Positions 7,282 to 18,208 of a DNA stretch of 30,349 nt are shown in pieces (position 1 is the first letter of the stretch; every line of letters starts with the position of its first letter). A model generated the notes under the pieces. The model was not told where the DNA came from. It made no database searches and was given only the letters and a program-made list of their open reading frames with translations. Source of the DNA: a virus (lineage: Duplodnaviria > Heunggongvirae > Uroviricota > Caudoviricetes). Location: the IMG/VR virus record IMGVR_UViG_2778261692_000006; one strand, 5' to 3'. A program made the translations under genes and the position numbers.

Positions 7282-7452
7282 TTAAAGTTCGTGTGCCATC
7301 TGGTCTTTTTCGGCACAGATTTCACTACAATATTTTTTCATTTCCGTCGTTGGTATAACTCCACGCATGAAATGAAGTGGTCTTGTAATGATTTTGCTTT
7401 CTTCAATTTCTTTATTGCAAAGGTGATAAGCACATTTTATTTTCTTAGTCAT
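7282..7452 (-). CDS. ydaE: YdaE-like small zinc-binding protein
   Basis: 56-aa ORF ([18 protein letters not shown]...CSEICAEKDQMAHEL) read by hand on the minus strand; below the 60-aa cutoff of the ORF track; start overlaps the kilR stop (TAATG). Confidence 0.6.
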   Translation of the reverse strand: MTKKIKCAYHLCNKEIEESKIITRPLHFMRGVIPTTEMKKYCSEICAEKDQMAHEL

Positions 7453-7673
7453 TACCATGACTCCGCCTTTACAGGTAAACCATCACGACCGAGGAAGACT
7501 CTAATCATGCAGTCAGAAATGCATGTTTTTGTAGTCAGGCTACGAATATAAAGTTTTCGCTTTTTAATATTGTTTGCCGAGGCGATATATGTCCGACCTT
7601 CATGAAGAACATAATCGCCAGGGGTCACACACTGACGTGGTATTTCATCAGTTCCGAAGTGATGAGCAATCAT
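7452..7673 (-). CDS. kilR: KilR, FtsZ-targeting cell-division inhibitor of Rac
   Basis: 73-aa product from [15 protein letters not shown]... with GGAG Shine-Dalgarno upstream; size and sequence as recalled for Rac KilR; track ORF extends to 7685. Confidence 0.75.
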
Positions 7674-7711
7674 AATTATCTCCATTTTTACAAATGAATT
7701 TTGTCGATGCG

Positions 7712-7760
7712 GTGCCTGGTGCCTCCAGGTGACGTTAACCAGTTAACAATTAACGCCGGA
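7712..7760. promoter_or_regulatory. Candidate operator/promoter region of the leftward early operon
   Basis: Palindrome CCTGGTGCCTCCAGG and three TTAAC motifs (GTTAACCAGTTAACAATTAAC) 40-90 bp upstream of kilR; no clear -35/-10 assigned. Confidence 0.3.
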
Positions 7761-8068
7761 TAATCCACCCATAACACTGATGCTTTTAACTGTGCCGCGT
7801 GCGCTTAGCCGCATTCACCGCATCACAAAATTCACTTTAAAAAGGGGCGGCAGGGCAGCCACGGAGTAGAACTGATGCCGCCAAAGACTACACATAGCAA
7901 TGTCGTTATTTACAACCGGAGGCGCACTCCCACCATTTAAATTTAACAGACAAGACCGACTCTTTATGAATACCGGAAATGCGCCTTCGTGTTGTGCGCC
8001 TGTCTTTTTACCACTTCAGGCTCGGTGGTATACTGGAGTTCTCACACAACCAGTAATAAGGTATTCAG

Positions 8069-8263
8069 ATGGATAATAAAGACAAAGCCTGGCTACTTGC
8101 TTTAGCTTTCAGCATCAGATCGCAGCGAGAAACAACTCATCAAGAATTTTTCTCGGAAATCGAGAATGCTGAGAATGAGTTTTTGTCACTACTCAATGAA
8201 CGTGATGCTAAAAAAAGCGCCGATTCACTTAAGGCTTGGGCGAAACTAGGCTCTTCAAAATAA
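8069..8263 (+). CDS. Hypothetical 64-aa protein
   Basis: ORF with AAGG Shine-Dalgarno and an upstream extended -10-like TGGTATACT; 3' end overlaps the convergent gene by about 35 bp. Confidence 0.45.
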   Translation: MDNKDKAWLLALAFSIRSQRETTHQEFFSEIENAENEFLSLLNERDAKKSADSLKAWAKLGSSK

Positions 8264-8447
8264 TTGCTTCTGTAGCGGCATGAACAACTGTTTTTGCCGC
8301 CTCTTCAACTTCCTTGTCTGGACGACCAGCCTTTACTTTTTCTGCAATGACCTCCAGCACAGTTGGAAGAACCTTGCTAATAAGCATGGCTGCCACATCT
8401 TTGCTGCACAATTGACCGTTAATAACAACCAGATCTTCACCAACCAT
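8229..8447 (-). CDS. Hypothetical 72-aa protein, convergent with 8069..8263
   Basis: ATG at 8447 preceded by AAGGGGA Shine-Dalgarno (track ORF starts at a TTG at 8504); candidate promoter TTGTTG-17-TAGATA upstream. Confidence 0.45.
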   Translation of the reverse strand: MVGEDLVVINGQLCSKDVAAMLISKVLPTVLEVIAEKVKAGRPDKEVEEAAKTVVHAATEAIILKSLVSPKP

Positions 8448-8691
8448 CTTTTTTCCCCTTAACGCCGGGTGGCGGAACGTTTTATCTACTGCGCTTTGTA
8501 TCAATCAACAACTGCCGTCATGTTCGTATGCCTCAGGCTGGCTACTTAGCCCTGTTCAGTGGCTGGATAACTCGAGGTATTGTCCAGCCGTTCTCTGGTG
8601 GGGCGTTGTTTGGATATGCTTATTAAACACAATGCGTTTTCTTATGTCAACACGAAATGTGTTTTGTGGTGAGTGTCATATGATGATGGTA

Positions 8692-8746: not shown

Positions 8747-9166
8747 TTACTCCGGTGGGGGATTATCTTTAAGCCTGCCTCTCAAATATTTTTCTACATA
8801 CTCATCGATTTCTTTTAGCCGGACTTCAAATAGCTCAATCATTCGTTGTTGTTCTGAGCCAGGTAGCTGGTTAAACAACTCAAGAAGTTTTCGTTGGGAT
8901 TCATTTAACCACAATTCAGAAGATTCCTGTTCTCCAAATAGGAGCTCAGGAGGAGATATGCCAAGTGCCTTTCCCAATACGACAGCGTCATGCACTCCAA
9001 CATTTCTGCTGCCCGCCTCATAGTTACCTATACGCGATTGCGTCCATCCGCAGATTTCAGCAAGTTTTCCTTGAGATAAACCAAGCTTCTGCCTGCGCTC
9101 TTTAAGACGCATTGCAATTTTGTCATTGAGCCTACTAGCGGCAATTTTTTCGTTTTCTTTTTCCAT
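8747..9166 (-). CDS. Prophage repressor, XRE-family helix-turn-helix, with no LexA-like peptidase domain
   Basis: 139 aa; HTH segment LGLSQGKLAEICGWTQSRIGNYEAG; divergent from the cro-like gene; too short to carry an S24 autocleavage domain. Confidence 0.8.
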   Translation of the reverse strand: MEKENEKIAASRLNDKIAMRLKERRQKLGLSQGKLAEICGWTQSRIGNYEAGSRNVGVHDAVVLGKALGISPPELLFGEQESSELWLNESQRKLLELFNQLPGSEQQRMIELFEVRLKEIDEYVEKYLRGRLKDNPPPE

Positions 9167-9262
9167 TGCATCCTTGTATCACGAATCGTGATTTACATAA
9201 AACACAAAACAGCTTGACCATATAACACAAGGTGTGTTTAAAATTGTCATCGGAGGTTTTCA
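9167..9262. promoter_or_regulatory. Divergent promoter/operator region between repressor and cro-like gene
   Basis: Palindrome ATCACGAATCGTGAT (9178-9192); -35-like TTGACC (9214-9219); second palindrome ACACAAGGTGTGT (9225-9237) in the spacer before an AT-rich -10-like segment. Confidence 0.6.
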
Positions 9263-15449: not shown

Positions 15450-15628
15450 GAAGGAAACAAAACAGAAACAACAATTGCCGTTACCTGTTGTTACCATGGC
15501 AAGTAAACGTATCTCAGGCGAGCGCATTGCGCCGTTCTGACGCAGATAAATTAGCCTGGATAGAAGGTGCTGGCAATAAAAAATAGCGTTTTCTTATCGG
15601 TGTCGGTAAGATTGCTGCGGGTGCTTGA

Positions 15629-15668
15629 GGCTGTCTGCCTCAGGCATGCCACTGTAAGGCAGACAGAG
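15629..15668 (+). promoter_or_regulatory. Structured element in the hok leader
   Basis: 10-bp inverted repeat CTGTCTGCCT / AGGCAGACAG around a loop containing the self-complementary GGCATGCC; an overlapping alternative pairing GAGGC/GCCTC is possible. Confidence 0.4.
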
Positions 15669-15787
15669 AAAAGCCCCAGTTAACATTACGCGTCCGGCAA
15701 GACGCTTAACATTAATCTGAGGCTCAATCTATGAACGGCAAATCTAGGTTAGCCTCTTACGTGCCGAAAGGCAAGGAGAAGCAGGCT

Positions 15788-15943
15788 ATGAAGCAGCAAA
15801 AGGCGATGTTAGTCGCCCTGATCGTCATCTGTTTAACCGTCATAGTGACGGCACTGGTAACGAGGAAAGACCTCTGCGAGGTACGAATCCGAACCGGCCA
15901 GACGGAGGTCGCTGTCTTCACAGCTTACGAACCTGAGGAGTAA
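15788..15943 (+). CDS. hok: Hok/Gef-family type I toxin (HokD/RelF-like membrane peptide)
   Basis: 51-aa product MKQQKAMLVALIVICLTVIVTALVTRKDLCEVRIRTGQTEVAVFTAYEPEE matches the Hok family as recalled; AAGGAG upstream; the track ORF (from 15731) adds a 19-aa in-frame extension. Confidence 0.85.
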   Translation: MKQQKAMLVALIVICLTVIVTALVTRKDLCEVRIRTGQTEVAVFTAYEPEE

Positions 15944-17943: not shown

Positions 17944-18029
17944 CTCAATCTGTTATCCGGGGCTATATTCCTCACGCGCCAGCAAAATCTGGCGTCGGGA
18001 TTGGCGTCCCGGATGAAAAAGGCGACAAC

Positions 18030-18050
18030 AGACGCGCCAGCGTCTTTTTT
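18030..18050 (+). terminator. tR'-like terminator downstream of Q
   Basis: Stem AGACGC / GCGTCT with loop GCCA followed by TTTTTT; another hairpin CGCCAG caaaat CTGGCG lies about 40 nt upstream. Confidence 0.5.
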
Positions 18051-18208
18051 ATTGTCGTTTGCACTGTCACATCTCAATGGTGGGCTGTGTGGGGGCGGAG
18101 CGATCCGCGCCGGTTCCTTTTTCCCGGTTACGCCAACCCTGCACAGTTCACCACCATACTGATTGGCGTCAGCAGTGGTGATGATTCACATAGAAAAAGG
18201 ATCATCCT

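Follow-up and report, generated by a model that had tools for sequence, protein, structure and literature searches.

A convergent, overlapping pair of small genes beside a prophage repressor, a candidate mobile cassette of temperate phages

We describe here a pair of small convergent genes in the viral sequence IMGVR_UViG_2778261692_000006 (Duplodnaviria; Heunggongvirae; Uroviricota; Caudoviricetes), whose full length of 30,349 nt is called the window below. The two genes, which we name ORF64 (positions 8069 to 8263, plus strand) and ORF72 (8447 to 8229, minus strand, counted from ATG) after the 64- and 72-residue proteins that they encode, lie between a prophage repressor gene and kilR and overlap at their 3′ ends. 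Comparison of homologous sequences indicates that both genes encode proteins under purifying selection. We propose that the locus serves temperate phages as a mobile accessory cassette of two interlocked genes, and that reciprocal expression of its genes in the lysogen and during lytic growth is likely; on the sequence evidence set out here we hold this reading to be probable, with some reserve.

Coding capacity and distribution of the pair

The doubly coding 3′ overlap covers exactly 35 nt (8229 to 8263, both strands), includes both stop codons and specifies C-terminal residues of both products. A first-pass annotation, made by reading the bare sequence, had announced two such genes sharing about 35 bp, each with its own Shine-Dalgarno sequence; the latter were indeed found 7 nt from each ATG, as AAGG at 8058 to 8061 (plus strand) for ORF64 and as AAGGGG at 8460 to 8455 (minus strand) for ORF72. 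In near-identical Escherichia coli genomes, the Prokaryotic Genome Annotation Pipeline places both genes at identical coordinates, as WP_001419881.1 (ORF64) and WP_000232637.1 (ORF72), and labels both 'hypothetical protein'; they correspond to PHROG 22868 and PHROG 23495, respectively. A longer version of ORF72, with 91 residues from a TTG at 8504, received no support from homologues.

A 60- to 70-codon ORF found alone would be unremarkable, since 6 kb of this DNA hold 59 ORFs of at least 30 codons. We consider ORF64 and ORF72 to be more than chance ORFs because of the comparative data, namely their constant length and their substitution pattern. Both frames are open and constant in length in 29 distinct cassette sequences; the span from ATG to ATG is 379 nt in 28 of them, and the overlap measures 35 nt in 25 cassettes, 32 nt in one and 29 nt in three. 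Variable sites at the first, second and third codon positions number 29, 22 and 43 of 53 for ORF64 and 22, 24 and 45 of about 61 for ORF72, so that the third position of each gene's own frame varies most. Outside the overlap, distant pairs gave proportions of synonymous differences (pS) of 0.64 to 0.88, near saturation, versus 0.20 to 0.39 for nonsynonymous differences (pN). The 35-nt overlap is the least variable stretch, with 10 of its 35 sites variable as compared with 59% and 49% in its flanks, and purifying selection on ORF72 covers the whole length of the gene, the hairpin region described below and beyond. The first-pass annotation had allowed for the case that neither ORF is conserved as a coding sequence; both are.

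The proteins themselves resemble no recognised family, in agreement with the initial impression. Neither had a match in Pfam, NCBIfam or PADLOC, in sequence-profile searches of the PDB, or among the toxin, antitoxin and defence models; Foldseek against BFVD returned nothing at E ≤ 0.001, and the PHROGs matches of both proteins were to families of unknown function alone. The AlphaFold2 model of ORF64 consists of a helix (residues 3 to 16) followed by a long helix (24 to 61), with a predicted local distance difference test score (pLDDT) of 77.5 and a predicted template modelling score of 0.41. That of ORF72 has a β-hairpin (6 to 15) and two long helices, with a pLDDT of 80 that falls to 58–46 at the low-confidence C-terminal end. 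As read from the sequences, neither protein has a membrane-spanning hydrophobic segment. Homology to SieB, YdaF, YdfC, YmfI and YmfJ was rejected by comparison. An N-like role for ORF72 was also discarded: neither an arginine-rich motif nor the N_peptide family was recognised in the protein, which had no Pfam match, and in one locus (L025) the homologue of ORF72 comes after a distinct N_peptide-like gene.

The cassette is rare. It occurs in 30 of 5,426 complete E. coli genomes and in one GenBank phage record; a plasmid search yielded no copies and a metagenome scan no match, the lone match in a scan of genome contigs was judged spurious (low identity, non-enterobacterial Nomurabacteria host), and viral contigs gave no match to the proteins P0074 and P0076. 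Literature searches by accession number and by PHROG identifier returned nothing. Among 1.84 billion proteins, the ORF72 family forms 15 representative clusters, and the ORF64 family comprises 46 clusters from seven genera. We examined the genomic context of about 65 loci, from Escherichia, Salmonella, Klebsiella, Raoultella, Citrobacter, Edwardsiella and Superficieibacter, two of which (L045 and L046) are truncated. An intact convergent ORF72 overlapping by 29 to 35 nt accompanies ORF64 in 59 of the 63 loci where ORF64 is intact. This linkage holds across repressor types, with a helix-turn-helix (HTH) domain only or with an S24 domain, and across downstream neighbours (KilR, Lambda_Kil, a ParE/Phd pair and others); in some loci an N-like or other small gene stands in front of ORF72.

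More distant pairs were reached through the weakest ORF72 relatives. In three loci (L069 and L070/L071), an ORF72-like gene of 93 to 98 codons lies within a myovirus-type tail module, between the tail tube and tail assembly chaperone genes, and an ORF64-like gene of 60 to 64 codons converges on it with an overlap of 83 or 71 nt. In another locus (L072), the homologous pair directly follows an S24 repressor gene and overlaps by 122 nt. Profile-profile comparison confirmed that the distant ORF64-like and ORF72-like proteins are homologous to their counterparts, with probabilities of 95.4% (E = 1.9e-8) and 98.5% (E = 3.8e-15), respectively. At about 26–34% protein identity the distant pairs are still convergent and overlapping, which brings the overall range of the overlap to 29–122 nt. 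In every distant case, the lytic operon around the pair runs in the direction of the ORF72-like gene and against the ORF64-like one. The pair, which is convergent and overlapping in about 60 enterobacterial loci, is thus not bound to the slot beside the repressor, since distant homologous pairs stand in the tail module. Some ORF72 homologues are extended at the N-terminus (105–116 residues) or at the C-terminus (143 residues) around a conserved core that is the 72-residue unit (P0071, P0072 and P0074; positions 4152–4496 of L022 and 2950–3300 of L072).

Transcriptional layout of the locus

ORF64 appears to have its own promoter. The promoter scan predicted one on the plus strand at 8007 to 8034, with a −35 box TTTACC (8007 to 8012), a 16-nt spacer and an extended −10 element TGgTATACT, whose TG is at 8026–8027 and whose hexamer (8029 to 8034) lies 34 nt upstream of the ATG. 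The motif TGgTAT(A/G/C)CT recurs 31 to 34 nt 5′ of the ORF64 ATG in nearly all loci, and one clade has a second promoter type, likewise with an extended −10, at 30 nt. The non-coding block that holds the promoter is more conserved than the coding sequence. Its promoter and 5′ untranslated part (8000 to 8056, plus strand) is 93% identical over 57 nt to a block found directly 5′ of ymfI in the e14 prophage (L068, 2920–2985); this 57-nt block occurs in about 470 of the 5,426 E. coli genomes and is recognisable also 5′ of the distant ORF64-like gene of L072. The promoter spacer contains the conserved inverted repeat ACCAC-N10-GTGGT (8010 to 8029). A related repeat lies near sieB in the Rac prophage of strain K-12; the 5′ untranslated region of ORF64 also holds CTGG-N13-CCAG, and the conservation of the block goes beyond what a promoter alone needs. 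The −10 region is palindromic, but a promoter reading on the minus strand was rejected because conservation is limited to the plus-strand TAT..T, and no RNA structure was supported on the minus strand across the block (fold z = +0.47). Likewise, the sequence 5′ of ORF64 was rejected as a LexA box, since 15 nt separate the CTG from the CAG where the consensus has 10 nt.

The 3′ end of the ORF64 unit seems to lie inside its partner. An RNA hairpin on the plus strand (8275 to 8300), 12 nt past the ORF64 stop codon, falls within ORF72 codons E48 to T59 (EEAAKTVVHAAT), the best-conserved codons of that gene (motif AAKTVV..AA, or AAKTTAEAVV in the distant group). Its fold z-score is −2.2. Across 11 distinct sequences, 95.5% of the cells in the stem alignment are paired and three pairs have changed on both sides; the covariation score was reached by none of 500 shuffles, and control windows slid along the alignment paired at 28–64%. 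Pairing is better on the plus strand (105 of 110 cells) than on the minus strand (94 of 110), with G-U pairs favouring the former. The hairpin persists in loci where ORF72 has decayed and, at the equivalent position of the distant pairs, a canonical terminator is found, with a GC-rich stem of 8 to 10 bp, a UUCG loop and UUUUU. The hairpin probably terminates the ORF64 mRNA or stabilises its 3′ end, and the transcript probably ends about 40–50 nt into ORF72. As the hairpin of ORF64 sits in the most conserved codons of ORF72, the two genes are physically interlocked. With a predicted sigma-70 promoter, a Shine-Dalgarno sequence, an ORF and a covarying 3′ hairpin, ORF64 is, on these sequence features, an autonomous moron-like unit.

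The situation of ORF72 is different. No promoter of its own was found for ORF72 in the window, so that the initial claim of a promoter-like sequence for each gene stands for ORF64, with its conserved extended −10, and falls for ORF72, which lies behind a predicted early-left (pL-type) promoter. We read the latter on the minus strand at 8650 to 8622, with a −35 box TTGACA (8650–8645), a 17-nt spacer and a −10 box TTTAAT (8627–8622). The sequence AACAC-N5-GTGTT, a candidate repressor operator, covers both boxes, as an exact copy at 8649–8663 over the −35 and as a copy with one mismatch at 8626–8640 over the −10; a third, exact copy (9224–9238) is located between the repressor and cro-like genes. 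These are the only three matches in the whole 30-kb window, all of them beside the repressor gene, and they are candidate OL and OR. The repressor gene (8747 to 9166, minus strand) encodes 139 residues with an HTH_3 domain and without an S24 peptidase domain; induction is thus probably brought about by an antirepressor rather than by RecA-stimulated self-cleavage. The terminator scan placed a strong terminator behind this gene (8716–8698, minus strand), and the pL promoter lies downstream of it. Taken together, the sequence features indicate that ORF72 is the first cistron of a repressor-controlled early-left operon and not an autonomous gene.

Between this promoter and ORF72, the leader carries the motif GTTCCGCCACCCGGCGTTAAGGG (8456 to 8478, minus strand), which includes the ORF72 Shine-Dalgarno sequence. 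In 53 of 67 loci, K-12 Rac with ydaG included, the motif in the form GTTCCGCNACCCNGCGNTAAGGG lies 5′ of whichever ORF opens the early-left operon (ORF72, ydaG, or an 81- or 70-residue gene; for example L003, 3968–3990, minus strand). The leader of ydfA in the Qin prophage has the variant CGCT-ACCCC-AGCG in place of CGCC-ACCC-GGCG, in which a small hairpin is kept through changes on both sides. The motif may act as a signal for translation or form an RNA element.

Downstream of ORF72, the next feature of the operon is a DicF-like small RNA (7845 to 7896, minus strand; Rfam RF00039, 60.9 bits versus a threshold of 48) with its terminator at 7862–7847, which the first-pass annotation had missed. 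It stands where K-12 Rac has kilS and Qin has dicF. The stretch from DicF to kilR aligns with dicF–dicB of Qin and kilS–kilR of Rac, and is common to about 4,600 E. coli genomes. After ORF72, the next gene of this operon to encode a protein is kilR (7452 to 7685, minus strand). The terminator scan predicted no terminator on the minus strand between ORF72 and DicF; consequently, the early-left transcript must cross the whole ORF64 unit in antisense, its promoter included, and kilR can be reached solely by transcription across antisense ORF64. The two mRNAs had been described as mutually antisense over the shared 35 bp. The antisense layout is borne out, and the predicted transcripts make its extent much larger and asymmetric.

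Proposed working of the cassette and alternative explanations

This layout suggests the following scenario. In the lysogen, the repressor would close pL, so that ORF64 would be made from its own promoter and ORF72 would be off. Upon derepression, transcription from pL would produce ORF72 and, by running over the ORF64 promoter, would silence ORF64 through occlusion. The pL RNA and the ORF64 mRNA could moreover form a duplex of about 270 bp, a second possible route to ORF64 silencing. The expression of ORF64 and ORF72 would then be reciprocal, in the manner of an excludon. Conversely, the ORF64 mRNA of the lysogen may pair with leaky pL read-through and thereby dampen DicF and kilR. That the two genes are expressed in a mutually exclusive manner is inferred by analogy with sieB-ydaF and ymfI-ymfJ, which are among the 165 convergent excludons detected by RNA sequencing (PMC12288877).

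Several observations weigh against this scenario or against the idea of a functional pair. Promoters, transcript ends and reciprocity are predictions throughout. The terminator scan of the window did not flag the hairpin at 8275–8300 and its U-tail is poor in the window (CUCUUCAA); the ORF64 transcript may therefore extend further. One clade (L024, L065 and L067) has ORF64 with a remnant of ORF72 or none, L041 has an intact ORF72 and a disrupted ORF64, and in L073 an ORF72-like gene that follows a DnaC-like gene faces an ORF64-like partner decayed to a short remnant. Since either gene persists with a damaged partner, neither is strictly needed to tolerate the other in a prophage, and the embedded terminator together with the conserved flanking blocks could simply explain co-inheritance. 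Base composition does not set the cassette apart either, its GC content being 42.7% as compared with 41.5% for kilR and 42.9% for the repressor gene.

The last of these thoughts about linkage can be taken further: ORF64 and ORF72 may be functionally unrelated genes that are kept together by their physical interlock, the overlap being a packing accident frozen by double coding. The flanking blocks shared by Rac-, Qin- and e14-type prophages could then act as recombination anchors. The position of the ORF64 hairpin inside ORF72 speaks for this explanation, as do the existence of solo or damaged partners, the fact that the same flanking blocks also border loci with other cargo, and the coding content of the overlap, which specifies C-terminal tails that are modelled with low confidence in the case of ORF72. 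However, the convergent overlap has been kept down to about 26–34% protein identity while its length changed (29–122 nt), the pair also persists in a tail operon, where the Rac-type anchors are missing, and ORF72 is under purifying selection over its whole length and not at the hairpin alone. We consider the interlock explanation plausible, though of low probability. Another idea is that one or both ORFs are untranslated and that the conserved element is an antisense RNA or another non-coding feature. The small size of the ORFs, their lack of any known protein family and the conserved hairpin would fit, and lambdoid immunity regions do carry antisense RNAs, such as oop and the sas RNA of P22 (PMC12197685). 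Against it, pS is far above pN, the third-position variation peaks in each annotated frame, both ORFs remain intact at constant length across distant relatives as well as the 29 distinct sequences, each is preceded by a good Shine-Dalgarno sequence, and the Rfam scan gave no match under either ORF, which makes this idea highly implausible in our eyes.

The two genes could also work against each other as proteins, in a toxin-antitoxin-like or abortive-infection pair where one small helical protein is harmful, the other neutralises it by binding, and convergent transcription sets the ratio between them. Such a pair would account for the tight linkage of two small proteins that are mobile between phage contexts, and ORF64 copies with a decayed partner do resemble orphan antitoxins. 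The inverted repeat of the ORF64 promoter might serve autoregulation; this repeat, however, also occurs 5′ of ymfI and close to sieB, in places that have no cassette. The use of the same slot by the exclusion gene sieB in Rac is again in favour. Nevertheless, the genes are convergent rather than arranged as a type II-style bicistron, neither protein matches a toxin, antitoxin or defence model or has a membrane-spanning hydrophobic segment, and each gene survives the loss of its partner (ORF72 is intact and ORF64 disrupted in L041, and the reverse cases occur too). We therefore regard a protein-level toxin-antitoxin pair as unlikely.

Returning to the mobile cassette with reciprocal expression, what its products do can be approached only tentatively. 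By analogy, ORF64 might be a factor of the lysogenic state, for instance one that excludes other phages like sieB, and ORF72 its lytic-phase partner or antidote; we offer this more speculative guess of exclusion and relief, which we think possible rather than likely, because the pair is kept in unrelated contexts, ORF72 always lies on the lytic strand and the slot is that of sieB in Rac. A bolder version, which we think rather doubtful, is that the locus is an undescribed mobile module of two proteins, with ORF64 as the lysogen effector and ORF72 as the partner within the lytic operon, early or late, their exclusive expression being hard-wired by the convergent overlap and the terminator of the effector being embedded in conserved codons of the partner; the module would then serve exclusion or abortive infection with self-immunity, or would be a device for lytic commitment.

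If the proposal is correct, the cassette would be a portable and compact case of a temperate phage tying an accessory function to its own state, where the on/off switch lies in the layout of the DNA instead of coming from a regulator. In Rac-, Qin- and e14-type prophages, the stretch that follows the repressor emerges as a swap site with conserved flanks (the leader motif and the promoter block), which hosts at least three unrelated convergent pairs, one of them including the known exclusion gene sieB. On account of this occupancy, ORF64 can reasonably be considered as a candidate for a new factor that acts against phages or modifies the host. The layout further matters for how DicF and KilR are controlled, two cell-division inhibitors that are directly downstream on the antisense strand.

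Other features were noted around the cassette and in the rest of the window. A PhdYeFM/ParE toxin-antitoxin pair (L016, 4947–5509) and a ParE-like gene (L013, 5445–5669) directly follow the cassette within the early-left operon of some relatives, and such ParE-type neighbours show that the stretch gathers accessory modules. In the window, the kilR leader (7690–7855, minus strand) gave a sub-threshold STnc100 match (42 bits versus 47), and a palindrome separate from the candidate operators, ATCACGA-A-TCGTGAT, is present at about 9177–9191. Elsewhere in the window, Rfam matches were obtained at 463–607, 2169–2347, 15619–15793 and 17963–18158; the families are SraC/RyeA, SdsR/RyeB, the RalA antitoxin RNA, the sok antitoxin RNA, and isrK with the C4 antisense RNA and its a1b1 target. 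SraC/RyeA and SdsR/RyeB belong to the host flank, and a prophage end is therefore nearby.

Comparison with known systems

The closest positional relative is the sieB-ydaF locus (with ydaG) of K-12 Rac. As the first-pass annotation had proposed, the slot is that of sieB in Rac, between the repressor and a small RNA (kilS or DicF) followed by kilR. Its second suggestion, that lambda carries rexAB there, was not sustained: rexAB is co-transcribed with cI and lies outside the early-left slot, which leaves sieB as the sole positional analogue. In Rac as in the window, the small first early-left genes converge on and overlap a gene of the opposite strand, the leader motif is found upstream and homologous sequence downstream. 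The cargo, in contrast, is unrelated: comparisons of ORF64 with SieB (hhalign probability 0.1%) and of ORF72 with YdaF both stayed below 0.2% probability, SieB has 162 residues, the sieB overlap is 4 nt as against 35 nt, and no joint movement of sieB and ydaF as one unit is known.

The e14 prophage of K-12 offers a second parallel, with the order repressor (ymfK), ymfJ, and the opposed ymfI, and with a convergent overlap of 63 nt between the latter two. Here it is the promoter and 5′ untranslated block that is shared, ymfI carrying the same block as ORF64. The YmfI and YmfJ proteins, however, are unrelated to those of ORF64 and ORF72 and are longer (113 and 102 residues). In a time course of the SOS response, ymfJ rose late by 4–4.8 log2 units (about 16- to 28-fold) and the YmfJ protein was detected, while ymfI stayed nearly flat (PMC11002266).

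The sieB-esc-sas system of P22 and lambda has several elements in common with the model proposed here, namely a lysogen-expressed factor in the early-left region, self-protection and control by an antisense RNA (PMC12197685, PMC7067206). It differs in its parts: Esc is made in frame from within sieB and sas does not code for protein, whereas the present locus has two unrelated protein genes on opposite strands and is known from sequence alone. More generally, genes with their own promoter placed antisense to lytic operons are typical accessory loci (PMC7067206). ORF64 resembles morons, autonomous promoter-gene-terminator units of prophages, in its predicted sigma-70-type promoter, its own Shine-Dalgarno sequence and a 3′ hairpin that may be a terminator, and it sits antisense within lytic operons at varied insertion points, including the tail operon. 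It departs from them by being paired with a second gene on the operon strand, which holds its terminator, and by a base composition that is not distinct. The slot, for its part, is filled by other cargo in Rac, Qin and e14, and the pair is also found between tail tube and tail assembly chaperone genes.

The resemblance to toxin-antitoxin systems is more superficial. Like type II systems, the pair is a mobile two-gene cassette of small proteins of which orphan copies occur. Unlike them, ORF64 and ORF72 are convergent in every locus examined and not co-transcribed on one strand, and no recognisable toxin fold or antitoxin DNA-binding domain of type II was found in them. A type I system is not indicated either: the locus encodes no hydrophobic membrane-spanning peptide, and both of its strands encode proteins under selection. 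Because the features that define the SieB, N, type I and type II toxin-antitoxin families were looked for and not found, the locus falls outside all of them. To our knowledge, and with no literature search dedicated to the question, a deeply conserved convergent and overlapping pair that occurs in both early and late operons, with the terminator of one gene inside a conserved motif of its partner, has not been described. At the sequence level, the locus has the layout of a convergent excludon, with its 35-nt coding overlap, a hairpin within ORF72 and no minus-strand terminator before DicF. Altogether, position and layout would place it by analogy with the sieB-ydaF and ymfI-ymfJ excludons, and ORF64 taken alone resembles a moron.

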